Part shown: piece after piece, positions 1 through 14,642 of the stretch
How positions within the stretch are numbered: the stretch's first letter is position 1
Layout of the letters: every line of letters begins with the position of its first letter
Assembly: GCA_942493105.1 (NCBI GenBank)
Contig: OW818668.1
Location: 240,001 to 272,000 of the forward strand
Length of the DNA: 32,000 nt
Direction: 5' to 3'
Origin: an uncultured Erysipelotrichaceae bacterium
Lineage (GTDB): Bacteria > Bacillota_I > Bacilli_A > Erysipelotrichales > Erysipelotrichaceae
Position numbers and translations under genes: made by a program
Notes under the pieces: model-generated
The model's database searches: none
Seen by the model: the letters and a program-made list of their open reading frames with translations, nothing else
What the model was told of the DNA's origin: nothing

Positions 1-727
1 GATTAGAAGATTTATGATAACATAAGACAGTCCCATCTTCATTCAGGTAAGTACCGCCGACAATATACCCTTCATGATCATAGTCAGGTTTGATTCGTTC
101 ATGCTTTATAGGAAAAGAGTAAAACTTTCTGTATACATTGATAATCTCAACCTTGGTTTCGTTGTAGGTTAGGGTATAGTAATTGAAATTACAGTCATTT
201 TCATTTATATTCTTAAATCTTGTTCTTATCTCATCTTTCAACTCCCCTCTCCAATCCTCTAGTACTCCATAACTGATCATCTTTCCTTCACTATCAAATT
301 TTGATAGTGAAAATTGAATGATTTTGTTCACATAGATATTTCCATGAAACACAAAAGACCATTCGACTTCGCCTTCTCGAAAGAAAAACTCTGTTACTTT
401 AATATCTTCTTTGCCCCATAAATGATGATGAGTCGTACGAATTAGAATGTTATTCGAATCAAAATCGTGAACAAATACATCATCAAGTATCTTAGGTACC
501 CTACTTAACTTTCTTCCCAAGTCAAGGTTAGTTACCTGTATTTTCATGAAAGGTACTTTTTGGTAGTATCCGCCAATTTCAGATTTACATCTAGAATACT
601 CTTTTTTGACTGTCCTCTTGTCAAATTCAGCATAAAGTTCATTTATGTCCCTTGTTAAGGCATCAAAATTCTTTGAATTGGCGATTATATCAAGCATATG
701 TCTTAATTCATCATTATATTCGTTCAT
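1..727 (-). CDS. hypothetical cassette protein, C-terminal part lies beyond window start
   Basis: Hand translation of the minus strand from ATG at 727 (GGGGG RBS 5 nt upstream) stays open to position 2, at least 242 codons (MNEYNDELRHMLDIIANSK...). It is absent from the ORF track because it has no stop inside the window. No domain recognised. Confidence 0.6.
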   Translation of the reverse strand, partial: MNEYNDELRHMLDIIANSKNFDALTRDINELYAEFDKRTVKKEYSRCKSEIGGYYQKVPFMKIQVTNLDLGRKLSRVPKILDDVFVHDFDSNNILIRTTHHHLWGKEDIKVTEFFFREGEVEWSFVFHGNIYVNKIIQFSLSKFDSEGKMISYGVLEDWRGELKDEIRTRFKNINENDCNFNYYTLTYNETKVEIINVYRKFYSFPIKHERIKPDYDHEGYIVGGTYLNEDGTVLCYHKSSN

Positions 728-807
728 CTTGACCCCCATTAAGTTATGTTACTTAAGATAGTTTGTCCTTTACAAAGCACCTATAATGCAGCTTGACTCT
801 TGATTTC

Positions 808-836
808 ATTATCCCTTTTCTTCATCTATTAGTTTA
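808..836 (-). promoter_or_regulatory. conserved cassette promoter-like module (TAAACT-17-GATAAT)
   Basis: Minus strand reads TAAACT, a 17-nt spacer, then GATAAT. It belongs to the recurring ~40-nt module CTAA..GATGAATAAAAGGGATAATG and lies between repeat ICR1 and the ORF starting at 727. Confidence 0.45.
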
Positions 837-855
837 CTTCAATTCATCTAATCCC

Positions 856-970
856 AGAACTCACCACGGTCTTCGTATTCGCTCCATATGGAGCATTCCC
901 CACAATCTAGTATGAACGCTTAGGCACACCCAATCGTGTCCCACAGTGAGTTTGCCAAGACCGTGGTCTG
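856..970. repeat. ~115-nt inter-cassette repeat, copy 1 (ICR1)
   Basis: AGAAC flank. Terminal inverted repeat ACCACGGTCTT (863-873) / AAGACCGTGGT (957-967). Internal palindrome GCTCCATATGGAGC. Same orientation as the other six copies. Confidence 0.9.
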
Positions 971-998
971 CATCGCAATCTAAAACCAGTATTTCTGT

Positions 999-1628
999 TT
1001 ACTTGTACTGATTTGATTTTTCCTCATATTCTGTTGCTTTAACCAGATCCCCTAAACGTTTATAAAACAAGGATTCGAATTTGTAGCCAAATCGTTTAAT
1101 ATCATCATAATCATATTCTGTGATGATTTTCTCAATCATCTCTATACTCCAGGTCAAAACTTCAGTGGTTGCATCGCTATCTTGTTGGATCAAAGTAAAA
1201 GGAGCTAGTATACTTAAATAATCTGAAGAGGCTATGAGTAATTTATATCGCATCTCAAATGCTTCCTTAAATTCGGAAATTTGATCTAATTGATAAAGTG
1301 CAAAAAGGTATTCAATATAGAAAATCTCATAGTCTTGTTCTGTCATGTTAGTTGGTTTGTTTTCTATTGCTAAATAATAGTATTTTGCTTTTTCTTTATA
1401 TTGACCTTCAACCTTAAGCAGAGATTTTATGAGGTTTACCAAACTGTTATCAGAATGGTAAAAATCATATTCTCGTTCATACCATATAACCGCTTCGCTA
1501 TAATTACTCCTAGATACATAAAAGTCTCCAATTTGTCTTGAAAAAACATTTAAACTGAGACCTAGAACTATCGTTAATCCAATAGCAGAGGCAAATATAA
1601 TCAACAGAACTTTTATTGGCTTTTTCAT
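999..1628 (-). CDS. N-terminally membrane-anchored helical protein, paralog of 7356..8018
   Basis: 209-aa ORF with RBS GGAAAGGGGA. One N-terminal TM helix (VLLIIFASAIGLTIVLGLSL). The stretch RQIGDFYVSRSNYSEAVIWYEREYDFYHSDNSL aligns by eye with KRIGDSYYKAGKWGESLFWYQVNYEIFRSNESL of the 220-aa ORF. Confidence 0.7.
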   Translation of the reverse strand: MKKPIKVLLIIFASAIGLTIVLGLSLNVFSRQIGDFYVSRSNYSEAVIWYEREYDFYHSDNSLVNLIKSLLKVEGQYKEKAKYYYLAIENKPTNMTEQDYEIFYIEYLFALYQLDQISEFKEAFEMRYKLLIASSDYLSILAPFTLIQQDSDATTEVLTWSIEMIEKIITEYDYDDIKRFGYKFESLFYKRLGDLVKATEYEEKSNQYK

Positions 1629-1649
1629 TCTATCCCCTTTCCATTAGTT

Positions 1650-1764
1650 AGAGCGCACCACGGTCTTCGTATCCGCTCCAGGTGGAGCATTCTCCACACT
1701 CGAGTATGAATGCTTAGGCACAGCCAATCGTATCCCACGGTGAGTTTGCCAAGACCGTGGTCTG
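1650..1764. repeat. ~115-nt inter-cassette repeat, copy 2 (ICR2)
   Basis: ACCACGGTCTT 1657-1667, AAGACCGTGGT 1751-1761, GCTCCAGGTGGAGC. The left flank is diverged (GAGCG instead of AGAAC). Confidence 0.9.
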
Positions 1765-1826
1765 AGTGCTCAGGGGCTCATACTACTTTAACATTTCGAA
1801 TCTGCAAAAATCGACCTGTTCCACTA

Positions 1827-3755
1827 TTACTTGGTCACATTGTAATAATATTCGATGTCGCTTAGACCAATTGTCTGTGTAGTCCCATCTGAATATTCGA
1901 CAATGATTTCGCTAATTGTCGATGAGTCGTAAGAATAGCTGTAAAAAAGTGTAGTATTTCTTTTGTAAGAAGATGTTGCACCTGCAGCTAATGGTCCTGT
2001 GTATTTCAATCTAGTATAGTTTTTCCCGTCTATATAATCGTAAACTAAATCACCTACAGAATTGAAGTTATACCATTGAATAACAACATAATTGATTTTT
2101 TTAGAAGTATTATTCTTAATTCTGAAATTCCATTCTATACCACCAAACATGTCAGATGTATAATGCCAATTAAGTAGTGTTACAGGGGATAGTTGCTTAA
2201 CAAAAAACTCGCATGTAGCCACTTTTCCATTTGATGATGTTGCTGTTATTGTTGCAATACCATATGTATGAGCGGTAACAATTCCGTTTGAAACAGATAT
2301 TACATTACTATTTGAGCTCGTCCATACAACAGATTTAACAGTTGTGTTTGATGGCAATACTGTTGCTTTTAGTAGCAAACTATTGCCCACTTTTAAGTCA
2401 TAAGTAATATAATTCAAAGAAATTGAATCTGCTAACACTTCAGTAACAGTGACTGTTATGTTAGCCTTTACCCCATTGACAGCAGTGGCAGAGACCGTAA
2501 CTGTCCCGGTTTTTACTGCTGTGATTTTTCCATTTTCAACTGAAGCAACTGATGGGTCCGAAGAAGTCCAAGTTAGTAAATTATCTTTAGCTTCAACAGG
2601 CAGGATTGATACAGTTAGAATAGCAGTTTTGAGTCTCTCCAGAGATAATGTTTCAATGCCTAACGTAATTGATGCTACCTCATAATATGTAGAAACAACT
2701 ACACTCGAACTTACCCCATTTTTGGTGGTAGCAGTAATCGTAGTTGATCCTTTTGACATAGCCGACATTACTCCATTTTGATCGACAGAGATAACTGACG
2801 GATTTGACGATTCCCAGACTACCTTTTTTTCCGTAGCATTCAAAGGGAAATAATCTGCTGTTAAAGAGCCTGTTTTGCCAACGATTACGGATGTTGGCCC
2901 CTGCAAAGTTACGGAGCTTACATCAACATACCTAATATGAACGACTATTGAATCCATAATATTTTTACTACCAAGGACTTTTATGGTTACGTCGCCTTCT
3001 GACAATCCTATGATGACACCATCTTTAATTGTAGCTATTGACTCGTCTGAGGATTCCCAAGCAAGTTTTTTTATATCATAATCTATCGGATCAGTAATCA
3101 CAGTTATTGTTGCTGTATCGCCAATCGCTACTGTAACTACTGCATTTTGGATTTCTACATTAGTTATTGGATCACTTGGTGGAAACATTCCTATAAGTAA
3201 CATAAACACTATAGGAGTGATAATTGGGACCAACTTCAACAATTTAGTTTTTGATGGGTCTTCTCCAAATTTCTTCTTTAATGGTATATAAACTAATGGA
3301 GTTAGTGAAATCCCTAAGAAGATAAAAATCAACCCAGATATCTGATTTATAGAAATTAATCCACTCAGAATGAATATGACACCAAAGAAATATCGTGCTA
3401 CTGAACTAATCTTCTTGCGGGATTTAGGCTCACTTCTTGGCTTTTGGGCATTAATAGGTTTTGCTGAAAAGTTTGTTTTCGCCTGTTGAGTTTGCTTTAT
3501 TGGTTTACTAAAGTCACTTTGAAATAGTGGTCTATCGCTTTCCCTTTGAGACGCTTTGAATAAATGTTGCCCATCTTCAATGGGTACCGTATTCGTATTT
3601 TCAATAGTCGAATCTACAATTTCAGGATCCTTTTTTTGTGTTTCAGGCGCAACAAAGGATTTTTGAATTTCGTTCTTTATAGCGCTTCCACATGAACTGC
3701 AAAACTTCTCACTACCTGTTAGTGGTCTTCCACATGTCGAACAGAACTTTGCCAT
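1827..3755 (-). CDS. zinc-ribbon / transmembrane / 4x Big_2 (bacterial Ig-like) repeat surface protein
   Basis: 642-aa ORF with RBS AAGGGGGGG. N-terminal CxxC..CxxC motif (FCSTCGRPLTGSEKFCSSCG). Hydrophobic segments around aa 120-190. Four repeats carrying W(E/T)SS(D/N)xS(V/I) Big_2-like signatures, plus a distinct C-terminal beta-rich domain. Confidence 0.8.
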   Translation of the reverse strand: MAKFCSTCGRPLTGSEKFCSSCGSAIKNEIQKSFVAPETQKKDPEIVDSTIENTNTVPIEDGQHLFKASQRESDRPLFQSDFSKPIKQTQQAKTNFSAKPINAQKPRSEPKSRKKISSVARYFFGVIFILSGLISINQISGLIFIFLGISLTPLVYIPLKKKFGEDPSKTKLLKLVPIITPIVFMLLIGMFPPSDPITNVEIQNAVVTVAIGDTATITVITDPIDYDIKKLAWESSDESIATIKDGVIIGLSEGDVTIKVLGSKNIMDSIVVHIRYVDVSSVTLQGPTSVIVGKTGSLTADYFPLNATEKKVVWESSNPSVISVDQNGVMSAMSKGSTTITATTKNGVSSSVVVSTYYEVASITLGIETLSLERLKTAILTVSILPVEAKDNLLTWTSSDPSVASVENGKITAVKTGTVTVSATAVNGVKANITVTVTEVLADSISLNYITYDLKVGNSLLLKATVLPSNTTVKSVVWTSSNSNVISVSNGIVTAHTYGIATITATSSNGKVATCEFFVKQLSPVTLLNWHYTSDMFGGIEWNFRIKNNTSKKINYVVIQWYNFNSVGDLVYDYIDGKNYTRLKYTGPLAAGATSSYKRNTTLFYSYSYDSSTISEIIVEYSDGTTQTIGLSDIEYYYNVTK

Positions 3756-3764
3756 AACCCCCCC

Positions 3765-4235
3765 TTAATACTCTAGGTATTTTGCATAATATTTGAATAA
3801 AAAACTATTTGTCTTAACTGTCACAGTTTTTTTTCTTCCATTACTATAAATCAACAAAAACGTCGATTCTTTCTTATTCTTACCGCTTATAGCTCCTCCT
3901 AGTAGACCAACTGGACCTAATAATGCTCCACCTATAGCTCCACGAACTATTGAACTTGTAGCTGATTTTCTTGAATCGTTCCCAACAATTATTGTCTTAA
4001 CAATATATGGTCGAGTTGCTTTTTTAACAGTAGGATTAATTGTTCTGGTCTGAAAGTTTGATTTCTGTTCTTCAAAAAACGCATTTATCTTTTGATCATC
4101 ACTAAACTCATCATCAATATCCTCATCAGTAACCCTCTCTGATTCGTACTCGGTCTGTATCTGAACTTTAAAACCACATTTAGAACAAAATTTTGCATCA
4201 TCACTCATTTTAGAGCCACAGTTTGTGCAGAACAT
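3765..4235 (-). CDS. small zinc-ribbon protein with glycine-zipper segment
   Basis: Start moved to ATG 4235 (RBS GAAAGGA, 8 nt spacing), giving MFCTNCGSKMSDDAKFCSKCG. GAIGGALLGPVGLLGGAISG glycine-zipper. Stop lies 9 nt before the next gene, so it is probably co-transcribed with 1827..3755. Confidence 0.7.
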   Translation of the reverse strand: MFCTNCGSKMSDDAKFCSKCGFKVQIQTEYESERVTDEDIDDEFSDDQKINAFFEEQKSNFQTRTINPTVKKATRPYIVKTIIVGNDSRKSATSSIVRGAIGGALLGPVGLLGGAISGKNKKESTFLLIYSNGRKKTVTVKTNSFLFKYYAKYLEY

Positions 4236-4417
4236 ATTGATCATCCTTTCTAAGTTCAAAAAAGTGGAACGATAATTTAACATCCATTTTCATTAATCTG
4301 AAATATATCTAGTAGATATCGCATTTAATGATTCTAATTCTCTAAAGTAGATACTTATGAATGTTCTTGCTCAAAATTGTTCTAAACCTGAATTAATGCT
4401 TCAAACCCATTATTGCT

Positions 4418-4446
4418 ATTATCTCTTTTATTTATCTGTTAGTCTA
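4418..4446 (-). promoter_or_regulatory. conserved cassette promoter-like module (TAGACT-17-GATAAT)
   Basis: Minus strand reads TAGACT aacagataaataaaaga GATAAT, upstream of the zinc-ribbon gene pair. Confidence 0.45.
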
Positions 4447-4636
4447 CCTATTATGCGTCTGATTTGTTGACAAATCAATACAGTTAGTTTCTCCCCTCTG
4501 TCAATCCGGGACACTTAGTGATGTGTATTGCATAAGGGAGTATTAGCTTAAGGGCAAGAAGGCGTATTCGTGTCTGTGCCTAATTTAATCAATACATGAT
4601 ATTGAGTTATGAAGTCGTAAATTCCGTCTCATCTGT

Positions 4637-5173
4637 TTACTGGATAAATGCCTGTATAAAGAAAATTTTCGATATTACACAGTAGTAAACGTACTCATCA
4701 ATGCTAAACGTTCCATCATCATTTATAGTTGCACTGAAATTAGGATAATAGCTATTTTCGGAGCTAAAAGACAACTGAACCTTCTTACCAACTTGAGATG
4801 ATTCAGTTTTTCCGGTAATAATGAAATGCACTTTATAAGGAGCAGCTCCTGGATCATCATATAGGTACCCATCAGTTGAACGATTTTTATCTTGATTTAC
4901 TGACTCAAATGACACATTTTTAATCTCAGTTGTTATCGATTTGATATGAATAACGATGTCTGTCCCTGTTACAATCCAGTCAAAAGATTTTGATGGGTAA
5001 AGATCTAGCGAAGACCCATCTGGGTAATTTTTAATTAAACTCGCAATTTTCTCAGACACTTTGATATCAACTAAATCATTGATCTCTTGTTCAGTAAGAG
5101 TTTTTGTCCCTCCATCACCACTGCACCCAGAAACTAACAGCAAAAATACTAACACTGTAATTATCTTTTTCAT
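4637..5173 (-). CDS. lipoprotein of unknown function
   Basis: Start moved to ATG 5173 (RBS AAAGGGGA). Signal peptide with lipobox MKKIITVLVFLLLVSGC. Confidence 0.75.
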   Translation of the reverse strand: MKKIITVLVFLLLVSGCSGDGGTKTLTEQEINDLVDIKVSEKIASLIKNYPDGSSLDLYPSKSFDWIVTGTDIVIHIKSITTEIKNVSFESVNQDKNRSTDGYLYDDPGAAPYKVHFIITGKTESSQVGKKVQLSFSSENSYYPNFSATINDDGTFSIDEYVYYCVISKIFFIQAFIQ

Positions 5174-5310
5174 AAATCCCCTTTGACTGAAATTATACAA
5201 TATTTATTCTTTCAAATTCGTCCTAGTTTTTACTAGTCCGCTTTTATGGTCATCATATAAAGATGCCTTTCCCCTAAATTGTTCCAAAACAGAATTATCT
5301 CTTCAATCTT

Positions 5311-5348
5311 ATTATCCCCATTTTCCCTTATATTCATCCGATAGTCTA
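5311..5348 (-). promoter_or_regulatory. conserved cassette promoter-like module with 9-nt insertion (TAGACT-17-GAAAAT, then GATAAT)
   Basis: Minus strand reads TAGACT atcggatgaatataagg GAAAAT ggg GATAAT, upstream of the lipoprotein gene. Confidence 0.4.
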
Positions 5349-5401
5349 CCTACTATACGTGTATTTTTGGTTCATATTTGAAGTGGCATAGTCCAGTTCT
5401 C

Positions 5402-5517
5402 ATAACGCACCACGGTCTTCGTATTCGCTCCAGGTGGAGCATTCTCACTCTTCTAGTATAAACCGCTTAGGCACACCCAATCGTGTCCCACGGTCGGCTA
5501 TTTAAGACCGTGGTCAG
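5402..5517. repeat. ~115-nt inter-cassette repeat, copy 3 (ICR3), platform-type right end
   Basis: ACCACGGTCTT 5409-5419, AAGACCGTGGT 5504-5514. The 9 nt between CCCACGGT and AAGACCGTGGT read CGGCTATTT instead of GAGTTTGCC, and the right flank is CAGCGTTGTC, as in ICR7. Confidence 0.9.
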
Positions 5518-5669
5518 CGTTGTCTTTTCTCAGTCAAACTGCTCTTGTTATTCAACTTTCATAATCATTCTGTCTCATTCATTCTACCCTATTTTAGAGC
5601 TATATATATCACTAATTTAGTGTTCATTTTCTTATTATTTCGGTTCTCTTTTAAAAAGAAATCTCAAAA
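5518..5669. repeat. ~152-nt conserved platform spacer between ICR3 and att repeat DR1
   Basis: Aligns by eye with 10879-11030 at about 15 mismatches in 152 nt. Non-coding. Contains CTAAAATAGGGTAGAATG (minus strand), which resembles the cassette promoter module. Confidence 0.8.
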
Positions 5670-5760
5670 TCCGTTACACTTTTGTTACACTTGGACAAAG
5701 TGACCTGCAAAAAAGCCTTATAGAATAAGGCTTCGTGAAGTCATGGTGCCATCACCGAGA
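5670..5760. repeat. 91-nt direct repeat DR1: tRNA-Thr 3' fragment plus downstream sequence (att-like)
   Basis: Identical by eye to 11031-11121 and 16807-16897. Ends with TGGTGCCATCACCGAGA, the complement of the last 17 nt of tRNA-Thr. Contains a terminator hairpin copy and GTTACACTTTTGTTACAC (5673-5690). Confidence 0.9.
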
Positions 5761-5972
5761 GCAGAATTTATGCGTATTTTTAGGTGTCAGTTATGATAAA
5801 AAACTTAAAAAACAAGCCTTTTAGTCGATTTTTATCGAATTAAGTTGGATTAAATCGGAATAAAACAGAAAATCCGTTACACATTTGTTACACTTCGGAA
5901 AGACTATTTCAGCCACCATGTTAATCAACAAAAGACTTCACTTTTCTCAACACACCTGAATTTACTCAACAT
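5761..5972. other. non-coding arm region adjacent to DR1, diverged homolog of 11122-11368
   Basis: Shared blocks with 11122-11368: TATTTAGGT, TTATGATAAAAA, a tandem GTTAC repeat, and TTTTCTCAAC. No ORF. Confidence 0.6.
5876..5893. repeat. tandem GTTACAC direct repeat (candidate arm-type recombinase site)
   Basis: GTTACACATTTGTTACAC with 11-nt periodicity. The ~35-nt context AAAATCCGTTACACnTTTGTTACACTT duplicates the left end of DR1, 203 nt away. Confidence 0.55.
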
Positions 5973-6494
5973 TCACTTCTTACTGTTTTTCCATCGTTCT
6001 TCTTCATACCAAGCTTTTCCGGAATATTCGTCCCACTTCGCGATGAATGTCCTATATGATATGTTAAGATTGTAAATTCCAACATGACCATCAAGACAGA
6101 TACTGATTCTATATCTTCCATCATTTGTTTCGGGCAATGCTGATAAATCTTGGATACGACACCAGGATTTCATGGTTTCTTCAAGAATAGTCGCAAATTC
6201 AGAAGGATCTACGTTTCTTGCTGGTTCAGATTTTATTAAGTTCCAGTTTTCGTCAAACTGCGAGTTGGCACAGAATATGATTTCGTCAACTTGAACATCT
6301 TCAAACTCAATGATGCATCCCAGAATACGCATGTCTTCAGTTAATTTATTCTGAGAGTTTTCTGTAGTCGCATTGATATCATCTACGATCCAATGCATTG
6401 TATGTTCCTTAATGGAAAACGACGTGATTTCAGCATCATGGTATGAGAAGTGGCTTATTTCATTAATGGCTTTGTATTTCATGTGATTTATCAC
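5973..6494 (-). CDS. hypothetical cytoplasmic protein
   Basis: 173-aa ORF (GTG 6494 or ATG 6482; the start is uncertain because AGGGAG sits 1 or 13 nt upstream). Acidic, no TM segment, no domain recognised. Confidence 0.6.
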   Translation of the reverse strand: MINHMKYKAINEISHFSYHDAEITSFSIKEHTMHWIVDDINATTENSQNKLTEDMRILGCIIEFEDVQVDEIIFCANSQFDENWNLIKSEPARNVDPSEFATILEETMKSWCRIQDLSALPETNDGRYRISICLDGHVGIYNLNISYRTFIAKWDEYSGKAWYEEERWKNSKK

Positions 6495-6565
6495 ACTCCC
6501 TGTTTGTTCATTCCAATTAAACGAATAGCTTCATGATTAACTATATGCCTAGTTATTATGTTTCT

Positions 6566-6680
6566 AGAACACACCACGGTCTTCGTATTCGCTCCAGGTG
6601 GAGTATTCCCCACAGTCTAGTATGAACGCTTAGGCACATGCAGTCGTGTCCTACGGTGAGTTTGCTAAGACCGTGGTCTG
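6566..6680. repeat. ~115-nt inter-cassette repeat, copy 4 (ICR4)
   Basis: AGAAC 6566-6570, ACCACGGTCTT 6573-6583, AAGACCGTGGT 6667-6677. The most diverged interior of the seven (CACATGCAGTCGTGTCCTACGG). Confidence 0.9.
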
Positions 6681-6732
6681 ATTCAATATTACCGAATACC
6701 AAACATTCCACTATCATAACTGCAGTCATCTA

Positions 6733-7212
6733 TTAATTTACCTTTTCAATAATGGCACCGATCTTACTATGTGGATAATAAATAACTTTAAATCGATCGC
6801 CAATCCTTATTGGATAATAATAAGCCGTAAAACTAAACTCTTCATCTGAAACAACACTTTTTATCACTACTCCTCTTATCTCTATGACATCTTCAGGTCC
6901 AGCACTACTTGGGCTTATTACTACACATTCATCCAAAACATATTCCTTTCTGACAACATTGGGTATATCTGCTAAAACATTAGAGGAAGACAAAACATTA
7001 ACTAGTATTATTATCAAAAAGAAAGAGTAAAGCACAATATGAACTATGGAGTTCATTTTCTCATAGTTAACATTACTCGTAAAGACATTTTGAATTTTGG
7101 TTCTGCTTAAAAATACAATTGCAATAACACATACAATTGGGATAATAAGCACGCCTTGAAGTGAAGCAAAGTATAACTGCGACATTTTGGATAATTGATC
7201 TGAATAATTCAT
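6733..7212 (-). CDS. small two-TM membrane protein
   Basis: 159-aa ORF. Hydrophobic helices GVLIIPIVCVIAIVFL and IVHIVLYSFFLIIILVNVL. Confidence 0.65.
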   Translation of the reverse strand: MNYSDQLSKMSQLYFASLQGVLIIPIVCVIAIVFLSRTKIQNVFTSNVNYEKMNSIVHIVLYSFFLIIILVNVLSSSNVLADIPNVVRKEYVLDECVVISPSSAGPEDVIEIRGVVIKSVVSDEEFSFTAYYYPIRIGDRFKVIYYPHSKIGAIIEKVN

Positions 7213-7274
7213 AATTGTGCCATTACCCCTAACTTGCTACAAATCAGAACTAACTCTTTATTCTTATTAATCTC

Positions 7275-7303
7275 ATTATCCCTTTTATTCATCCGTTAGT
7301 CTA
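7275..7303 (-). promoter_or_regulatory. conserved cassette promoter-like module (TAGACT-17-GATAAT)
   Basis: Minus strand reads TAGACT aacggatgaataaaagg GATAAT, about 60 nt upstream of ATG 7212. Confidence 0.45.
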
Positions 7304-7355
7304 CCTACTATAAGGATATTTAAGGCTCTACTATAAATCGCTGTGGTCCAATCAC

Positions 7356-8018
7356 TCAATTAATTCCATCCTGTAACTCTTGCTTAACTTGCTCATATTG
7401 TTCAATTAGTTTGTCATGCATCTCTGTGTTTCCAAGTTTCTGGTAAATAAGTGATTGGCTATAATAAATAGGTAATTTGAAGATGTTCTTTTGGTTATTT
7501 ACCTCTAGGATATAATCACCTATTTCTATCGCAAACAACAGAGTGTCATTGCTGGCTGAATTATCAAGAGAAATATAGCTTAGAGGTTGAGTGGTATCAA
7601 TGTTTCCAACAAAATCATTAATGCTTTCACGATATACTGTCCTGAATTCTTCTGTATCACCGTTGTCATATAAGGCTTCAATATACTGGATTGTCAAACC
7701 CAAAAGATCATCTTCTTGGAGGATATTTTTTTCTAGCAAAATTGGTGTATATTCGATGGTGATTTTTGTGTTGTTTACTAATAAAGCAGTGAAACACAAT
7801 TCTTTTAAGCTTTCATTACTTCTAAATATCTCGTAGTTTACTTGGTACCAGAAAAGTGATTCCCCCCACTTACCAGCTTTATAATATGAATCACCTATTC
7901 GTTTCGAAATTGAGATAGTACCCGCAACTATTAAACCAATCAATAAAATAAAACTCAATGCTAATTTCTTAAATACTGCAGAGCGTTTTTTTCTTTGGTT
8001 AAATGTCGATTGCGTCAT
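7356..8018 (-). CDS. N-terminally membrane-anchored helical protein, paralog of 999..1628
   Basis: 220-aa ORF with RBS GAGGGGTAGG. One TM helix (LALSFILLIGLIVAGTISI). Similar to the 209-aa ORF along its length. Confidence 0.7.
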   Translation of the reverse strand: MTQSTFNQRKKRSAVFKKLALSFILLIGLIVAGTISISKRIGDSYYKAGKWGESLFWYQVNYEIFRSNESLKELCFTALLVNNTKITIEYTPILLEKNILQEDDLLGLTIQYIEALYDNGDTEEFRTVYRESINDFVGNIDTTQPLSYISLDNSASNDTLLFAIEIGDYILEVNNQKNIFKLPIYYSQSLIYQKLGNTEMHDKLIEQYEQVKQELQDGIN

Positions 8019-8162
8019 ATTACCTACCCCTCAGTGAATTGACCGTCTTTCCTCTAAACTGTATGCATACTCGACTATCCCCCAATGATGCTATTTAAAT
8101 TCATTACTATAAGTATCTGCAATCCACTATCAATCAAGATCAAATAAACTTATGTATGGAAA

Positions 8163-8723
8163 TCAACTTAATATGTTGGTGAAGTAAGTACCTATAGCAG
8201 ATTCGATAGGCATTACGTGAACTAGATTACTTTCGCTATTAACTGGTTTAGGTTTAAATTCAGAGTTCGGTTCACTCATTGATAATGAATAGACTGATAA
8301 TGAATAAAATGCTTGTACTGTCAGATCATCCGGACTCTTTTTGTATGCCTTTTCGATCATTTCATGACCCAGTATAATCAACTCGTCAGGTGAAGTGAAG
8401 TCTTTATTTAGGAGATAATATGGCATTACATACATCATATATCCAAAATAGGTATTGAAATAAATGTTATCCGGAAATTTTTCATTTCCATAGGTATAAA
8501 CTGATTGGAACTTCGATTGAAGCTCATTAAAATCCAAATGTTTAGCATTCTTTAAATGTCCTATACTGTAATTCAATATATACCAAAGTTCCAGTGCATA
8601 GCATAGGTAGTTGTTTAGGTTTCTAGGCTCACTTTTCCATGCCGTATGTAAAAAATCGAGAGCCTTTTCCCACTCATTTTGTGCCTCTAGTTCGACGACC
8701 TTTGGATTATAGATTACTGTCAT
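8163..8723 (-). CDS. hypothetical cytoplasmic helical protein
   Basis: Start moved to ATG 8723 (RBS GGGGGA, 9 nt spacing), giving MTVIYNPKVVELEAQNEWEKALDFLH.... The track's 24-codon N-terminal extension would run into the promoter module. Confidence 0.65.
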   Translation of the reverse strand: MTVIYNPKVVELEAQNEWEKALDFLHTAWKSEPRNLNNYLCYALELWYILNYSIGHLKNAKHLDFNELQSKFQSVYTYGNEKFPDNIYFNTYFGYMMYVMPYYLLNKDFTSPDELIILGHEMIEKAYKKSPDDLTVQAFYSLSVYSLSMSEPNSEFKPKPVNSESNLVHVMPIESAIGTYFTNILS

Positions 8724-8793
8724 ATTTCTTATTCCCCCTAAGTTTACTGAACATATTTCGATGTGACTAAGATATTTTATAATCTCTATTCCC

Positions 8794-8822
8794 ATTATCC
8801 CTTTTATTCATCCTTTAGTCTG
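8794..8822 (-). promoter_or_regulatory. conserved cassette promoter-like module (CAGACT-17-GATAAT)
   Basis: Minus strand reads CAGACT aaaggatgaataaaagg GATAAT, directly after ICR5. Confidence 0.45.
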
Positions 8823-8842
8823 CCTTCTATACATCTAATCCC

Positions 8843-8957
8843 AGAACACACCACGGTCTTCGTATTAGCTCCAGGTGGAGCATTCTCCTCATCCTAATAT
8901 GAACGCTTAGGCACACCCAATCGTGTCCCACGGTGAGTTTGCCAAGACCGTGGTCTG
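8843..8957. repeat. ~115-nt inter-cassette repeat, copy 5 (ICR5)
   Basis: AGAAC 8843-8847, ACCACGGTCTT 8850-8860, AAGACCGTGGT 8944-8954, GCTCCAGGTGGAGC. Confidence 0.9.
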
Positions 8958-9028
8958 TGTCAATGTACTCTACGAAAGAATACTGGACTCTCTAACAGAT
9001 CTACCGCAATATAATATTCCGTTTGCTA

Positions 9029-9814
9029 TTAATTTGCTTTAAATGATTCTGCTAAATTCATTAGTATCGAAGAATCTATGTGAGGTGCAACCTGCAAAAG
9101 CATCTTTCCAAGACTGTCTAACCGAAGTTGAACAATACTGTGCTGTGATTCTATCCCACCTTGACTTGTTTTTAATACTTTGAAAATGCAGCCGTTTCCA
9201 AAAGCCACTTCGTCTATGACCTCTTCAACAACCAATTCTCCAGTTAAAGGGTGGTTGATTATTTTCTTTGAATTTCTAATATCAAATTCGAATTCGACAA
9301 GTTGGACCTCATTACCGCTTGTATAACATCTGATGATTTTAGAGTAACCGGTATCATCAAACTCAATTATCCAATCAATTGGTACCATATATGAACCGAA
9401 ATCATCACTGACTGTCTTGAATGAGTGCTCCAAAAAATAACTTTCTGTATCATCATATTTGAAACGAAATTGGAGTAATATTTCCGGCCTATCTAGTATT
9501 GCGTCAGTGCTTCGAAGTTCGTTGAGCATCATTTTGTTTATCTCATATTTATCTGCTATTTCCAGGGGAGGACTGTACGTCCGATTTGACCAAGAAAAAG
9601 GTATTCGCGGATCTATTATATTTATACCAACTGATTCCAATTCTCCAGCTTCAATTCTCAATGTGAAAACAGACATTTGTTTTAGTAACAAAAATACAAT
9701 ATCTTGTCCTATTTTAGCTGATGCATACACTTCAAATAACATTCCATCATAAGCAGAGTGCCAATTACCAAATTTCTTTTCAAATCTTTCTTTACTAATA
9801 ATCTGAAGGATCAT
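9029..9814 (-). CDS. hypothetical cytoplasmic protein
   Basis: Start moved from GTG 9823 to ATG 9814 (RBS AGGGTGGA, 6 nt spacing). 261 aa, no domain recognised. Confidence 0.65.
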   Translation of the reverse strand: MILQIISKERFEKKFGNWHSAYDGMLFEVYASAKIGQDIVFLLLKQMSVFTLRIEAGELESVGINIIDPRIPFSWSNRTYSPPLEIADKYEINKMMLNELRSTDAILDRPEILLQFRFKYDDTESYFLEHSFKTVSDDFGSYMVPIDWIIEFDDTGYSKIIRCYTSGNEVQLVEFEFDIRNSKKIINHPLTGELVVEEVIDEVAFGNGCIFKVLKTSQGGIESQHSIVQLRLDSLGKMLLQVAPHIDSSILMNLAESFKAN

Positions 9815-9849
9815 TATATCCACCCTAACACTAACATCTTGTTAAAACC

Positions 9850-9878
9850 ATTATACCTTATCGTATCACTCATATTTA
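9850..9878 (-). promoter_or_regulatory. diverged copy of cassette promoter-like module (TAAATA-17-TATAAT)
   Basis: Minus strand reads GTCTAAATATGAGTGATACGATAAGGTATAATG. The -10 is consensus, the -35 is weak, and the CTAA...AAGGnATAATG skeleton of the module is shared. Confidence 0.35.
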
Positions 9879-9924
9879 GACAAAAGATCCATAAAGAAAT
9901 AGAAACAATTTTAAGTTCATTCCT

Positions 9925-10039
9925 AGAACTCACCACGGTCTTCGTATGCGCTCCAGGTGGAGCATTCTCCTCATTCTAGTATTAACGCTTAGGCACACCC
10001 AATCATGTCCCACGGTGAGACTGCCAAGACCGTGGTCTA
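9925..10039. repeat. ~115-nt inter-cassette repeat, copy 6 (ICR6)
   Basis: AGAAC 9925-9929, ACCACGGTCTT 9932-9942, AAGACCGTGGT 10026-10036. Confidence 0.9.
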
Positions 10040-10123
10040 AGTCAATATTATGATCTCTACTGTTACTACTTATGCTTATGGACTTTGGATTTCTCAACTC
10101 ATCACTACTCTCTCAAACAAATT

Positions 10124-10675
10124 TCACTCAACTTTTAACCATTCGATGATGAATTGATAAGCTTCAAAATCATCTTGTTTCCAGGGTGTACACGAGTACA
10201 AGATTTTAGTATCATTCAATATTGTCTTTCGCATAGCAAGAACCTCGTATGAGTCACTTGTTGCATTTACCAAAGATTTCGCCACCATAATGAAATGCGT
10301 ATATTGTATTCTAACCAATCCATTTTGTGAACATAAGTCGAATTCAATTATCGGTTTTTCTTGGGTCAGTTCAACCTTAACTCCTTGGTACTTTTTCGGA
10401 TCTCCAACTTGGGTGATAGTTCCCTTACCTCTAACACATGAAAATCCTGTTTGAAAATCTTGACTTGATTTCTTACCAAAAAGCGATATCTTTACATGAT
10501 ATGTGATTCTTGGTTGGACACTCAGAATATCAAAAGACAACGCATTCTCACCGAAATCCGGGTTATAGGCTGGATTGGATTGTAGCCACCACTTTTCCTC
10601 GGGATTCAGTTTCTCGCCTTTTCTAATTCTAGTTAATAGTTCACTACAATAAGCAACATTTTGATGGTAGTTCAT
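10124..10675 (-). CDS. hypothetical cytoplasmic protein
   Basis: The track ORF starts at TTG 10735. ATG 10675 (MNYHQNVAYCSELL...) is preferred, with a weak GGGAAA RBS. No domain recognised. Confidence 0.6.
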   Translation of the reverse strand: MNYHQNVAYCSELLTRIRKGEKLNPEEKWWLQSNPAYNPDFGENALSFDILSVQPRITYHVKISLFGKKSSQDFQTGFSCVRGKGTITQVGDPKKYQGVKVELTQEKPIIEFDLCSQNGLVRIQYTHFIMVAKSLVNATSDSYEVLAMRKTILNDTKILYSCTPWKQDDFEAYQFIIEWLKVE

Positions 10676-10762
10676 TTTATTTTCCCATTTAGTTAATATA
10701 GAAATAATTGCTGTTATTTTAATTGTAGCATCCAAATAATGTGTTATGAAATCGTTTATTCT

Positions 10763-10878
10763 CAGAACTCACCATGGTCTTCGTAGTCGCTCCATGTGGA
10801 GCATTCCTGCTCATCTAGTATCAACATATTAGCCCATGTAATCGTGTCCCACGGTCGTCCGTTTAAGACCGTGGTCAG
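10763..10878. repeat. ~115-nt inter-cassette repeat, copy 7 (ICR7), platform-type right end
   Basis: ACCATGGTCTT 10770-10780 (one C>T), AAGACCGTGGT 10865-10875. The inter-motif 9 nt read CGTCCGTTT and the right flank is CAGCGTTGTC, as in ICR3. Confidence 0.9.
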
Positions 10879-11030
10879 CGTTGTCTTTTCTCAGTCAAAC
10901 AACCTACATTATTCGACTTTCATCATCATTCTGTCTCATTCATTCTACCTTATTTTAGAGCTACAAACATCACTAATTTAGTGTTCATTTTCTCATTATT
11001 TCGGTTCTCTTTTAAAAAGAAATCTCAAAT
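10879..11030. repeat. ~152-nt conserved platform spacer between ICR7 and att repeat DR2
   Basis: Second copy of 5518-5669 (about 15 mismatches by eye). Non-coding. The 61-aa plus-strand track ORF here is rejected. Confidence 0.8.
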
Positions 11031-11121
11031 TCCGTTACACTTTTGTTACACTTGGACAAAGTGACCTGCAAAAAAGCCTTATAGAATAAGGCTTCGTGAA
11101 GTCATGGTGCCATCACCGAGA
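11031..11121. repeat. 91-nt direct repeat DR2: tRNA-Thr 3' fragment plus downstream sequence (att-like)
   Basis: Identical by eye to DR1 and DR3. tRNA 3' fragment at 11105-11121. GTTACACTTTTGTTACAC at 11034-11051. Confidence 0.9.
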
Positions 11122-11368
11122 AACAAGGTATTTAGGTTAATCGGTTCATTTTAAGATAATATATGCTTATTTATGATAAAAATGACGATTTTAGAGCTAT
11201 ATAAATAATTAGATATTGATTTCTATGAGAATTATGTTACGATTTTGTTACGATTTTTTACAGGTCTTTTTATGCATTGTATTAGACTCGTTAGATTCTA
11301 AATTGGTTATTTGCACTACAATGACATATTCCAAATGGACTTTGTTTTCTCAACTTACCCCAAGTACT
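11122..11368. other. non-coding arm region adjacent to DR2, diverged homolog of 5761-5972
   Basis: Shared sequence blocks in the same order as 5761-5972. No ORF. Confidence 0.55.
11236..11254. repeat. tandem GTTACGA direct repeat (variant arm-type site)
   Basis: GTTACGATTTTGTTACGAT. It has the same 11-nt periodicity and the same position relative to the tRNA fragment as 5876-5893. Confidence 0.5.
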
Positions 11369-11767
11369 TCATAGATGAGGTTTAATGATATTGCTAAAAT
11401 ATTCCTTTTTGCCTGAAAGAAAATCTTCATATAAATTCTGTTTTTCATCAATAAATACTATACTATCTTGGAGCAGCTCAATTTTCTTCTGTAGATCCTC
11501 TTTTTGTTTTTGAAGCAATTGCTTTCGAAGCTGAATAGAAGGCTTACCTAATAAACACAGATCTACATATTGCTTCATTTGTTCAATAGTCATTCCACAT
11601 CGTTTTAAGCATAACAAGCTTTTGATCCAGGCAACATCATGATCATCGAAGATTCTGTAGTCGTTTTGATCTCTTTTCACATTCGGAATTAATCCTTGAT
11701 TGCAGTAATACTTCAATGTTTGATAACTTAAGCCAACCTTTTGGCCAGTTTCTTTCATGGAATACAT
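11369..11767 (-). CDS. MerR-family transcriptional regulator
   Basis: 132 aa. N-terminal winged HTH (ETGQKVGLSYQTLKYYCNQGLIP), a coiled-coil dimerisation helix, and cysteines in the C-terminal half. Divergent from an AKR gene across a 19-bp-spacer promoter. Confidence 0.85.
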   Translation of the reverse strand: MYSMKETGQKVGLSYQTLKYYCNQGLIPNVKRDQNDYRIFDDHDVAWIKSLLCLKRCGMTIEQMKQYVDLCLLGKPSIQLRKQLLQKQKEDLQKKIELLQDSIVFIDEKQNLYEDFLSGKKEYFSNIIKPHL

Positions 11768-11786
11768 CTTTTTTCTCCAATGGGTG

Positions 11787-11817
11787 TTGACCGATAGTAA
11801 CTATCGGCATCTATAAT
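11787..11817 (+). promoter_or_regulatory. MerR-type promoter/operator (TTGACC-19 bp-TATAAT)
   Basis: -35 at 11787-11792, -10 at 11812-11817, 19-bp spacer. The spacer contains the perfect palindrome CCGATAG-TAA-CTATCGG (11791-11807). Confidence 0.75.
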
Positions 11818-11856
11818 GGTATTATACATCAAATGTAACATTTGAAAAGGAGAGAG

Positions 11857-12711
11857 ATGGAATATACAACATTAAGAAATGGACTAGAAATACCGATGTT
11901 GGGATTTGGAGTCTTTCAGATGTCCAATGAGGAAACTGAGAAGTGTGTTCTTGAAGCCATTGAAGCGGGTTATCGATTGATTGATACCGCTCAGAGTTAT
12001 CGCAACGAAGATGGGGTTGGTAACGCCATCTTGAAATGCGGACTGTCTAGGGAAGAACTCATTATCTCAACGAAAGTTTGGTATGATAACTATGGATACG
12101 AGAAAACCAAAGCATCTTTGATTGAATCTTTGAAGAAACTGAAAACAGATTATATTGATATTGTTTTACTTCATCAGCCATTCAATGATACCTATGGTGC
12201 TTATCGTGCTTTGGAAGAATTCTACAAAGAAGGGAAAATCAAAGCGATTGGGGTCAGTAATTTCTATCCTGATCGTTTAAGTGATATTTGTGCCTTTACT
12301 GAGATTGCCCCGCTCATCAATCAAGTTGAAGTCAATGTTTTTAATCAACAAATTTCAGCTCAAGCAAACATGATTAAGAATGGTGTACAAATACAAGCAT
12401 GGGCACCTTTTGGAGAAGGCCGCAATAATATGTTCACAAATCCCACGCTTAAGGAAATTGGTGAAAGACATCATAAGTCGATTGCTCAAATTATCTTAAG
12501 ATGGTTACTTCAAAGAAAGGTCATTTCATTAGCTAAGACGGTCAATAAGGAAAGAATGATCGAAAATCTGAATATCTTTGATTTCGATCTTTCTGTTGAA
12601 GATATGGTGCTTATAGAGAGCTTGGATACCAAAGAGAGCTTGTTCTTTAATCATCAAAGTGTTGAAGCGGTTGAACGATTTGTTGAATTGGCTAAAAAAA
12701 GACGTGATTAA
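11857..12711 (+). CDS. aldo/keto reductase (DkgA/YtbE-like, ~284 aa)
   Basis: Start moved to ATG 11857 after AAAGGAGAGAG. AKR hallmarks include LIDTAQSYRNE, ISTKVW, DIVLLHQP and VSNF. Confidence 0.9.
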   Translation: MEYTTLRNGLEIPMLGFGVFQMSNEETEKCVLEAIEAGYRLIDTAQSYRNEDGVGNAILKCGLSREELIISTKVWYDNYGYEKTKASLIESLKKLKTDYIDIVLLHQPFNDTYGAYRALEEFYKEGKIKAIGVSNFYPDRLSDICAFTEIAPLINQVEVNVFNQQISAQANMIKNGVQIQAWAPFGEGRNNMFTNPTLKEIGERHHKSIAQIILRWLLQRKVISLAKTVNKERMIENLNIFDFDLSVEDMVLIESLDTKESLFFNHQSVEAVERFVELAKKRRD

Positions 12712-12735
12712 CATAAATCGTATTTAATACTTAAC

Positions 12736-12759
12736 AAGAAGCCTTGAAAAGGGCTTCTT
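12736..12759 (+). terminator. hairpin after AKR gene
   Basis: AAGAAGCC-ttgaaaag-GGCTTCTT followed by ATTTAT. The T-tract is weak. Confidence 0.5.
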
Positions 12760-12802
12760 ATTTATAATCCAATAATCATGAATTGAAATTTCTCATATAA
12801 AA

Positions 12803-12825
12803 AAAGGCTTTATAAACAAGCCTTT
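12803..12825 (-). terminator. Rho-independent terminator of 12879..13874
   Basis: AAAGGCTT-tataaac-AAGCCTTT. On the minus strand it is followed by a run of T. Confidence 0.65.
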
Positions 12826-12878
12826 GTAGAAACAACAGTAGATAAGCATATGTCCTTATATTCGACGCTTCCACATTC

Positions 12879-13874
12879 TTAATCAACAGGATTAGGCAAA
12901 GCTCCTACTATACTGTGTGAAGTATAAGGTTCTTCCAAGTATTTGATTTCTTCTTGAGTAAGTTTGATATTCATAGCAGCAACGGCTTCATCCACGTGTG
13001 ATATTTTGGTAGCCCCAATGATGGGTGCTACAACCGGTTTTTTGTTCCATAGCCAAGCCAATGCAATCTGTGATCTTAACACTTGATGTTTTGTTGCGAG
13101 TTCTCCCACTCGATCAAGGATTTCACGATCCATTTCTTCGGCTTTGTCATATTTTGATTTAGCGATTTGATCTGTATCACTTCGAAGACTTTTTTCACCA
13201 GGATTGCGTGATAAACGACCTGAAGCCAAAGGACTGTAAGGAGTCGAAGCTACACCCGTATCAATACAATATGGATTCATTTCTCGCTCTTCTTCACGAT
13301 AAATCAAATTATAGTGATTTTGCATCGATATGAATTTAGTCCAACCATGTTTTTCGGCTACGTTTTGTGCCTTTTGAAATTGCCAAGCATACATAGCACT
13401 GGCTCCAATATATCTTACCTTTCCGCTTTTGATCAAATCATGCAAAGCCTCCATTGTTTCTTCGATTGGGGTATTATAATCCCAACGGTGAATGATGTAT
13501 AAATCGATGTAATCTACGCCTAATCGTTTTAAACTTTGTTCACATTCGTAAAAGATTTCTTTTCTTGATAAGCCGCCCCCATTTGGAACCTTTCTCATCG
13601 TCTGATTTACTTTTGTAGCAATAACAATTTCTTCACGTTTAGCGAAATCTTTAAGTGCTCTGCCTAAATAGAGTTCGCTTTCGCCCAAAGAATAGACATT
13701 GGCTGTATCAAAAAAGTTGATACCTAAATCTAAAGCGTGTTTGATGACTTGACGACTTTCTTCTTCATTAATGACCCATAAGTGAGATCTCTTGGCAGGA
13801 TCACCAAAACCCATGCAGCCTAAAGCAATCTTTGATACTTCTAATCCGGAATTTCCTAATCGTGTATATTCCAT
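12879..13874 (-). CDS. aldo/keto reductase (Tas/YajO-like, 331 aa)
   Basis: MEYTRLGNSGLEVSKIALGCMGFG, FFDTANVYS, DLYIIHRWD. Full-length AKR fold pattern. Confidence 0.9.
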   Translation of the reverse strand: MEYTRLGNSGLEVSKIALGCMGFGDPAKRSHLWVINEEESRQVIKHALDLGINFFDTANVYSLGESELYLGRALKDFAKREEIVIATKVNQTMRKVPNGGGLSRKEIFYECEQSLKRLGVDYIDLYIIHRWDYNTPIEETMEALHDLIKSGKVRYIGASAMYAWQFQKAQNVAEKHGWTKFISMQNHYNLIYREEEREMNPYCIDTGVASTPYSPLASGRLSRNPGEKSLRSDTDQIAKSKYDKAEEMDREILDRVGELATKHQVLRSQIALAWLWNKKPVVAPIIGATKISHVDEAVAAMNIKLTQEEIKYLEEPYTSHSIVGALPNPVD

Positions 13875-13897
13875 AGGTTATCCTCTCTTTCACTTTA

Positions 13898-13928: not shown

Positions 13929-13955
13929 GCAATAATCATTTATTTTCATAAAGAC

Positions 13956-14617: not shown

Positions 14618-14642
14618 TTTTCAAACCTCAAGGAGCATGCTT

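Follow-up and report, generated by a model that had tools for sequence, protein, structure and literature searches.

A structured, co-oriented boundary repeat in a gene-cassette array behind tRNA-Thr in an uncultured Erysipelotrichaceae bacterium

We analyzed a window of 32,000 nt from an uncultured Erysipelotrichaceae bacterium (contig OW818668.1, positions 240,001 to 272,000), in which a repeat of about 115 nt, here termed E, divides an array of small genes into cassettes. E is real: it is a structured element, not described before, that marks boundaries in this cassette array. Its seven copies share a single orientation, the element is restricted to arrays of this kind apart from one solitary copy, cassette exchange between arrays ends at E, and the copies of one array are homogenized. 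We infer recombination at E as the cause of this exchange, and likewise which enzyme would carry it out, and we tentatively regard E as a recombination or boundary module for cassette exchange. An earlier reading of the window, made from its letters alone (the sequence-only reading), had proposed the same seven copies and had correctly guessed a low-GC Gram-positive genome. The copies are the following.

856-970, minus strand: E copy 1 (145.9 bits), 31 nt past the stop codon of the open reading frame (ORF) at 999-1628.
1650-1764, minus strand: E copy 2 (138.6 bits); the start of the next ORF (1628) lies about 22 nt beyond the element.
5402-5517, minus strand: E copy 3, a platform-joined variant with the core ACCACGGTCTT AAATAG CCGACCGTGGG.
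6566-6680, minus strand: E copy 4, from repeat search, alignment and covariance model.
8843-8957, minus strand: E copy 5 (148.1 bits).
9925-10039, minus strand: E copy 6, from repeat search, alignment and covariance model.
10763-10878, minus strand: E copy 7, a platform-joined variant with C>T in the distal arm (gene-sense orientation).

The three methods, repeat search, alignment and covariance model, agree on the coordinates and shared orientation of all seven copies. Mean column identity in a MAFFT alignment of these copies is 83%, and the covariance model R1, built from them, scores them at 120-148 bits. The next-best R1 match in the 32 kb reaches only 10.5 bits, and the model detects no eighth copy in 11-32 kb, in agreement with the sequence-only reading, which had placed none beyond 11.1 kb. 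Allowing at most 1 mismatch, the arm ACCACGGTCTT is found 14 times in the 32 kb, all accounted for by seven inverted pairs with a spacing of about 83 nt, compared to 0.20 occurrences expected in shuffled sequence. A pattern count confirms that the 11-nt terminal inverted repeat is perfect in six of the seven copies and carries one C>T in copy 7, and the motif CCACGGT is present and kept three times per element, as had been claimed. The internal palindrome, previously said to be intact in every copy, is imperfect in copy 4, where it reads GCTCCAGGTGGAGT with one G-T mismatch. The ends originally assigned to E are correct as coordinates, but conservation continues past both of them by 10-25 nt (TAGAAC-N-C on one side and CTGAGTCAAT... 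on the other). Copies 3 and 7 finish in their last ~30 nt with CGGCTATTTAAG and CGTCCGTTTAAG, compared to GAGTTTGCCAAG in the other copies, because from about CCCACGGT on both belong to a 282-nt repeat that had been overlooked.

Read in the direction of the genes (minus strand), copy 1 consists of arm1 ACCACGGTCTT, a 6-nt centre, arm2 CTCACTGTGGG, a body, the hairpin GCTCCATATGGAGC and the distal arm AAGACCGTGGT. The 5' part of E begins with an extension, (A)TTGACTCAG, followed by arm1 ACCACGGTCTT, the 6-nt centre GGCAAA and arm2 CTCACCGTGGG, so that arm1, centre and arm2 form a 28-bp dyad (ACCACGGTCTT-6-CTCACCGTGGG). The middle part comprises GACACGATT, a small hairpin ACAC/GTGT, GCCTAAGCG-TTCATACTAGA, an 8-nt variable patch and GAAT, and the 3' part comprises the hairpin GCTCCA-NN-TGGAGC, GAATACG, the distal arm AAGACCGTGGT, which is an inverted copy of arm1, and finally G-N-GTTCTA. 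Each E thus contains three copies of one 7-11-nt motif resembling a protein-binding site, two of them in the dyad and the third, inverted and about 90 nt away, as the distal arm. The distal arm is able to pair with arm1, closing the whole of E into a stem-junction structure, and arm2 competes for the same partner.

Both strands of E fold about equally well, as DNA or as RNA (z about −4). In an alignment of 30 copies, 94.5% of the pair cells are paired, compared to 33-49% when the partners are slid, and compensatory changes in the stems amount to only 9 cells. The terminal repeat and the hairpin stems are conserved, and the loops and the 8-nt patch vary. Transitions in the stems produce G-U pairs 34 times on the strand antisense to the genes, compared to 13 times on the sense strand, with one constitutive U-G excluded. 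This wobble bias is suggestive of the antisense strand as the one that may fold, in a comparison where shared ancestry is not separated from signal. A scan for promoters and terminators listed no sigma-70-type promoter or intrinsic terminator inside any E copy, and its counts were no higher than in shuffled sequence. A micro-ORF starting from AATGCTCC in E was considered and rejected: copy 4 lacks the start, the spacing to the Shine-Dalgarno sequence is only about 1 nt, and the frame differs in length between copies. In copy 2, the ATG within E (AATGCTCC) opens a 21-codon frame (window 1628-1700, minus strand), the TGA of which overlaps the ATG of the 209-aa gene (ATGA); this frame is probably fortuitous.

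The window also contains a relative of E, termed type 2, which differs in its ending.

4480-4570, minus strand: type-2 relative of E, with the GACACGA..GCC(C)TAAGC..ATACT part in common and the ending ..GTCCCGGATTGACAGAGGG.

Type-2 repeats were also observed in three related loci (L021 1-30, 1168-1256 and 2801-2889; L023 1959-2070, 3184-3295 and 4817-4928; L030 47-139, 2337-2429 and 3119-3211). They end in ..GTCCCGGATTGACAGAGGGAATGA and have the dyad and/or the GACACGA..GCCTAAGC..ATACT part in common with E.

To determine how E is distributed, 185,579 species-representative genomes were scanned with a two-arm pattern. True homologues were found only in two Erysipelotrichaceae metagenome-assembled genomes (MAGs), WSYG01 (loci L003, L004, L005 and L008) and JAAXXT01 (L007); the remaining matches to the terminal arms were rejected as chance matches in high-GC sequence. 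A metagenome scan with an internal E pattern yielded six further contigs (L011-L016). R1 detects 30 copies in these loci together with the window, and more in contigs reached via the cassette proteins. In all there are 45 model matches, 7 in the window and 38 further ones from the two MAGs and metagenome contigs, all Erysipelotrichaceae; some loci overlap one another, so that these are not 45 separate places. Within a contig the E copies all point the same way: written as in the sequence-only reading, E runs antisense to the genes that flank it. Nearly all matches belong to arrays of small, variable genes immediately downstream of tRNA-Thr. The X3 MAG as a whole contains about 5 copies with the perfect repeat, 4 of them in tRNA-Thr arrays.

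The element had not been recognized as any named RNA or repeat family, and this is borne out by Rfam 15 (4,227 families), in which no E copy has a match at the gathering threshold or even at E≤10. Plasmid and phage collections gave no blastn match to E, viral contigs scanned with patterns for the body and the core of E and for the att modules described below contained no related sequence, and a string search of the literature with E motifs returned chance primer matches only. Dispersal in both orientations, which had been named as the behavior of an ordinary miniature inverted-repeat transposable element (MITE), was not seen: the 45 matches are co-oriented per contig, copies are few, and there are no target-site duplications. 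The census does include one solitary copy outside any array, at L004 2810-2933 (WSYG01000003.1), 54 nt past a SBP_bac_3/HD/GGDEF gene and upstream of BlaI/BlaR-like genes. The orthologous contig L032 (88% protein identity) lacks E, and its intergenic DNA is too diverged to define insertion borders. In a short metagenome contig, L013 (1022-1923), two E copies (GC about 37%) adjoin a GC-rich fragment whose product looks, from the letters, like an archaeal-type ribosomal protein L3; this contig is probably an assembly chimera.

Comparison between arrays revealed that three cassettes recur elsewhere with different neighbors, and that the homology ends at an E. The block consisting of E, the 209-aa gene and E (window 869-1767) is 94.5% identical to L017 9862-10750, and the genes on both sides differ. 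The terminal 173-aa gene with its upstream E (window 5983-6681) matches L014 3593-4288, and the upstream genes differ; in L014 and L027 a P arm connects this gene to a chromosomal gene of the AraC type, which marks a complete distal end of the array. Likewise, L007 1914-2963 matches L017 11738-12788 (a gene and its downstream E), and the next genes differ. Block content therefore does vary between genomes exactly at E boundaries, so that the failure named in the sequence-only reading, blocks that never vary there, did not occur.

In several hybrid elements the switch from one partner to another falls at or beside GACACGATT, immediately past the dyad. Up to GACACGATT there is no difference between window copies 3 and 7, and beyond it they diverge; the elements at L012:257 and L011:1022 have no dyad and start at AGACACGATT, and the type-2 relatives (window 4480-4570; L021, L023 and L030) have the dyad and/or the GACACGA part in common with E, followed by a different continuation. 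These hybrids would be in favor of a defined site. In addition, the 'variable' 8-mer is common to the E copies of one array: both L017 copies have CACCACAT, and window copy 5 does not differ from copy 6 in this patch. This sharing indicates gene conversion or homologous recombination among E copies, by which E would be homogenized within arrays.

E lies within a second layer of organization, absent from the sequence-only reading, in which att-like modules divide the arrays into tandem islands of 2-5 kb behind tRNA-Thr. In the window it is represented by the following features.

16881-16954, minus strand: tRNA-Thr(GGU), the anchor of the island array, from tRNA detection.
16804-16897, minus strand: att module copy 1, consisting of a 17-nt tRNA end, a terminator and a GTGTAAC-N4-GTGTAAC arm.
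10840-11121, minus strand: att module copy 2 with a platform of ~190 nt running into E copy 7, as part of the 282-nt repeat D3.
5667-5960, minus strand: complete attP-like P-core-P' junction between tandem islands, from repeats and alignment; with the platform into E copy 3 it spans 5479-5960.

The basis of this layer is a 94-nt direct repeat in three copies (5667-5760, 11028-11121 and 16804-16897), which contains the last 17 nt of tRNA-Thr, its terminator and a GTGTAAC-N4-GTGTAAC direct repeat. The two copies of D3 (5479-5760 and 10840-11121) are 94% identical. At the junction between tandem islands, the P arm (GTGTAAC x2) is at 5876-5893, the tRNA-end core at 5744-5760, followed by the terminator, and the P' arm at 5673-5690. 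A module of ~300 nt recurs across the arrays in the order GTGTAAC x2 arm, ~130 nt, pseudo-tRNA 3' end (..GGCACCA), terminator, second GTGTAAC x2 arm and promoter-like TAGACT-17-GATAAT; read as sequence, its anatomy is that of an attP-type site.

The contig L018 (ENA ERZ27284375 k119_484691, 1-3147) corresponds to one island of L017 (about 8712-11740), and its ends overlap by exactly 119 nt, the k of the assembler, which gives a circle of 3,028 bp joined at the att module. The circle could be the excised form of the island or else a tandem repeat collapsed in assembly. The sequence-only reading had suggested looking for circular excised blocks with one reconstituted E; the circular contig found is joined at the att module of a whole island and not at an E. 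The island bounded by tRNA-Thr att modules is therefore the only unit with direct evidence of mobility, rather than the single cassette. Since no integrase was found in any island examined, the island must be moved in trans.

To the right of the tRNA-Thr in the window lie core genes encoding Maf, TetR, a hydrolase, an acetyl-CoA transferase, a Liv-type ABC transporter, a thiolase and DsrE/TusA. In L007 the Maf/TetR side is syntenic with the window (79% over 2.6 kb) and the tRNA is the same, whereas all genes beyond the tRNA differ and E recurs. The same layout is found in L015 (tRNA-Thr GGU) and in L003 and L017 (tRNA-Thr CGU). The GC content of the arrays is 0.34-0.36, compared to 0.40-0.43 for the neighboring core genes. 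Directly after the tRNA-proximal att arm, a 77-aa ORF without family (16539-16772, minus strand) has 86% nucleotide identity to L005 3047-3339 in another MAG. It lies in a 5.7-kb segment between the same tRNA-end repeats (11122-16803), which encodes two MerR proteins, two aldo-keto reductases, a flavodoxin, an F420-type oxidoreductase and HxlR; neither an integrase nor E occurs in this segment, which the syntenic L007 lacks. In L027 (54-2973) and L028 (44-2963), an IS110-family (DEDD) transposase gene and an IS3-type (rve) gene stand directly against the att P' arm, replacing the part with tRNA end and terminator. Three viral contigs from IMG/VR, unrelated to one another (L024 about 8850-8880, L025 196-225 and L026 2860-3210), contain runs of GTGTAAC/GTTACAC iterons at this 11-nt spacing and have no other similarity to att modules.

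The genes delimited by E in the window are as follows.

1-10735, minus strand: eleven co-oriented cassette ORFs (≥60 aa), most without family.
1-730 (partial), 999-1628, 1827-3755, 3765-4283, 4637-5200 and 5973-6494, minus strand: cassette ORFs.
6733-7212, 7356-8018, 8163-8795, 9029-9823 and 10124-10735, minus strand: remaining cassette ORFs.
7275-7303, minus strand: conserved promoter-like module TAGACT-17-GATAAT; also at 808-836, 4418-4446, 5320-5348 and 8794-8822.

The ORF list agrees with the earlier description of eleven same-strand genes cut into blocks of one to three. E is located a median of 74 nt past the preceding stop codon (minimum 22; about 20-130), upstream of the next promoter module or start codon, and the promoter module, where present, comes after E. 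The promoter-like sequence TAGACT-17-GGGATAAT precedes many cassette genes in all arrays and was also observed in L003, L005, L007, L012, L014-L017, L021, L023 and L030. Its spacer is conserved as well (..GGATGAAGAAAAGG..), which suggests that the module may be under a shared regulator or sigma factor. The cassette proteins of the window belong to no Pfam, NCBIfam or PADLOC family, with three exceptions, namely a surface-type 642-aa protein (zinc ribbon and four Big_2 domains), a zinc-ribbon membrane protein and a lipoprotein. Exact-sequence look-ups returned no recorded entry for the window proteins. The sister arrays encode DUF4279, DUF4304, DUF5071, DUF2691, DUF1871, DUF7336, YxiG-like and Imm32 proteins, families that are typical of poly-immunity arrays at polymorphic-toxin loci. 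For the 173-aa cassette protein, an AlphaFold model (pLDDT 78) has as its best match in the PDB, a weak one (E 0.014, TM 0.33/0.5), PIM7, the immunity protein of a Bacillus cereus polymorphic toxin. The cassette genes are probably of the toxin-immunity type.

The ORF domain scans agree with the earlier statement that the window contains no intI, and the seven copies, taken together with 15-30 nt on either side, show neither RYYYAAC nor GTTRRRY cores. In the window, whose left end is still inside the array, the ORFs scanned contain no recombinase domain of the tyrosine, serine, DDE or HUH class. The complete distal array end that abuts the AraC-type chromosomal gene has no recombinase either. 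The contexts reached through homologues of two cassette proteins (L017-L031) include none with a recombinase linked to E. A 387-aa ORF in L021 belongs to no family; P0009 occurs in an unrelated context.

We favor, tentatively as stated above, a cassette system nested in small mobile islands, which would accumulate in tandem behind tRNA-Thr in one Erysipelotrichaceae clade. Each cassette would consist of one to three orphan genes followed by an E copy. With an identically oriented stretch of the same ~115 nt at the end of every cassette, recombination between two Es could delete, duplicate or swap cassettes. The agent would be either an unlinked site-specific recombinase that recognizes the CCACGGT arms, or RecA acting on repeats that are ~90% identical. 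The earlier proposal of a cassette array delimited by recombination sites is thus upheld as to a structured, co-oriented boundary at which blocks differ; no recombinase linked to E was found in the window or the related loci examined, and direct evidence of mobility exists only for the whole island. Several observations weigh against recombination or exchange at E. Truncated copies break at several points, namely at the boundary of core and body, inside the hairpin (L027 3809-3886) and at the distal arm, which is removed in L017:10655, L011:2909 and L012:1952, so that no single crossover site is evident. The Es flanking the 209-aa cassette share flank-specific bases with their counterparts and no derived variants inside E, and a table of informative sites inside E contained too few of them to map a switch point; the crossover point is therefore unmappable. 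No circular or empty-site product was found at the resolution of a single cassette, the sole circular contig being a whole island. The related loci contain no recombinase except the IS110/IS3 transposases of L027 and L028, which adjoin the att P' arm and not E. The arrays L021 and L030 possess the type-2 repeat and lack E of type 1. Finally, the solitary L004 copy stands after a GGDEF/HD gene of housekeeping type, and the nearest orthologous contig (88% protein identity) lacks it.

This last observation would suit a small non-autonomous mobile element, either a MITE or a hairpin element moved by an HUH- or RAYT-type enzyme, whose uniform orientation would result from strand-specific insertion into single strands coupled to replication. 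The perfect 11-nt terminal inverted repeat and the length of ~115 nt fit such an element, as does one gene that is preceded by E in L016 and not in L012. The hairpin with a recurrent junction 7-9 nt further on resembles, by analogy, HUH substrates such as IS200/IS605 ends and oriT (origin-of-transfer) sites, and the gene sense is the G-rich strand. However, there are no target-site duplications, the conserved flanks run past the inverted repeat, no contig has a copy in the opposite orientation, and the perfect-repeat copies in the X3 MAG are few and mostly in tRNA-Thr arrays. No transposase is associated with E, the IS110/IS3 genes of L027 adjoining the att arm. We consider a mobile element of this kind decidedly unlikely. 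A role of E as RNA is unlikely as well, with E co-transcribed with the cassettes and acting in the 3' untranslated or intercistronic region, where the junction closed by 11 bp would guard the upstream mRNA from 3' exonucleases or direct processing of the polycistron, in the manner of REP/BIME, ERIC and Correia elements. It would account for the position of E, always between a stop codon and the next promoter module or start codon, which the solitary L004 copy shares in that it follows a gene (GGDEF/HD). Read-through of E is expected from the lack of a promoter or intrinsic terminator within it, the sense strand folds at −43 to −49 kcal/mol (z −2.5 to −3.8), and stems are conserved where loops vary. 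Against this, none of the 4,227 Rfam families matches at E≤10, compensatory changes are few (9 cells), G-U tolerance is mainly antisense (34 vs. 13), which is the wrong strand for an mRNA element, and a general stabilizer of mRNA would not usually be confined to a single type of locus.

Two further explanations were weighed. E might be a functionless hitch-hiking scar or spacer, copied together with cassettes and similar through the recent spread of islands. Recent horizontal spread is real, as whole cassettes are 81-95% identical between genomes, and many E copies are truncated or degenerate. However, the unrelated flanking genes imply that E was not spread by segmental duplication, its conservation is patterned (stems and the three CCACGGT motifs kept, loops free), and its strict orientation and position would be left unexplained, which makes this explanation improbable to a high degree. 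E as a cis-acting site for helper-driven mobilization of the island, an origin-of-transfer mimic or single-strand origin serving island maintenance and not a cassette boundary, appears to us very improbable indeed. Such a site would suit islands that lack integrase, relaxase and replication genes and yet are evidently mobile (the 3,028-bp circular contig, tandem accretion and sharing between species). Each island has at least one E, which is orientation-specific, foldable as single-stranded DNA and biased between strands in its wobble tolerance. However, one island has four E copies within 5.3 kb and its neighbor at least three, a number well beyond what this function calls for, some arrays have no E, and no similarity to plasmid sequences was found. 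Three other candidates were rejected: a diversity-generating retroelement or retron (no reverse transcriptase and no adenine-specific variation), a CRISPR-like array (the spacers are genes), and a dif/Xer module (no sequence similarity, and the sites are co-oriented).

Among known systems, E arrays resemble in layout the sedentary chromosomal integrons and the integron-type cassette clusters termed CALINs, such as those with the ~120-nt attC repeats of Vibrio cholerae. Both consist of small orphan ORFs on one strand, mostly promoterless or self-promoted, each followed by a species-homogeneous, imperfectly palindromic repeat (~115 nt in E arrays) in one orientation, and cassette content differs between relatives. 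The wobble pattern hints in addition at a folded strand antisense to the genes, and the genes are co-oriented with replication. In contrast to attC, the ends of E are ACCACGGTCTT and AAGACCGTGGT and not the R'' RYYYAAC and R' GTTRRRY cores, and its interior is a multi-hairpin body rather than a single bulged stem. Furthermore, neither intI nor another tyrosine recombinase was found nearby, the host belongs to the Bacillota, and the blocks often comprise 2-3 genes that have promoters of their own. As an analogy the integron suits the layout, is unsupported for membership and is unproven for mechanism. To our knowledge, integrons, essentially a Gram-negative system, are the only cassette arrays whose dedicated boundary sites are well understood; one analogue, rAID-1 of Bacteroidales, has been described. 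If recombination at E were confirmed, the Bacillota would have arrived at an independent solution with its own structured site and no linked recombinase, the architecture would have evolved repeatedly for stockpiling orphan, probably immunity-type genes, and a new pair of recombination site and enzyme would have to be looked for. It is doubtful that E goes as far as being the attC equivalent of an integron-independent cassette capture in Gram-positives, a folded single-strand site with the 28-bp dyad and closure by the 11-nt arms, at which an unlinked recombinase would insert and excise immunity-gene cassettes, all nested in integrase-less tRNA-Thr islands moved in trans; this would amount to two stacked levels of modular gene capture.

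MITEs have terminal inverted repeats in common with E, whereas the target-site duplications and dispersal in both orientations that define them are not found for E in the MAGs and metagenome contigs. REP/BIME, ERIC, Correia and BOX repeats are similar in size, inverted termini, intergenic co-transcribed location and modular variants (E types 1 and 2). However, they occur genome-wide in both orientations and in tens to hundreds of copies, whereas E has few copies, one orientation and essentially one kind of locus. Islands that target tRNA genes and cis-mobilizable elements (CIMEs) undergo tandem accretion of the ICESt1/3 type. The islands described here are like them in that direct repeats of the tRNA 3' end flank the islands, an attP-like junction lies between tandem islands, and there is no integrase of their own. 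This comparison explains the island layer (D3/D4) and not E, which is inside the islands and has no sequence in common with the att modules. The tRNA-Thr mini-islands (2-5 kb, without mobility genes, assembling as circles) would stand out among mobile elements as unusually minimal.

The closest published concept is rAID-1, the recombinase-associated acquired interbacterial defence system of Bacteroidales, defined by an XerD-like recombinase of the tyrosine type, located 5', with >44% identity to BF9343_RS08045 and described as an integron-like array of orphan immunity genes with repetitive intergenic sequences (bioRxiv 10.1101/471110). E arrays have in common with it co-directional, low-GC, orphan immunity-type genes, repetitive intergenic motifs and horizontal mobility. 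At least two co-directional low-GC immunity-type genes with intergenic motifs, as in rAID-1, are present here, with the immunity families coming from the sister arrays and the window cassettes being without family. In contrast to rAID-1, E arrays start at tRNA-Thr and an att module, where no XerD-like recombinase was found at the head of the array; they belong to another phylum, have other repeats, and are nested in mini-islands bounded by tRNA-Thr att modules.

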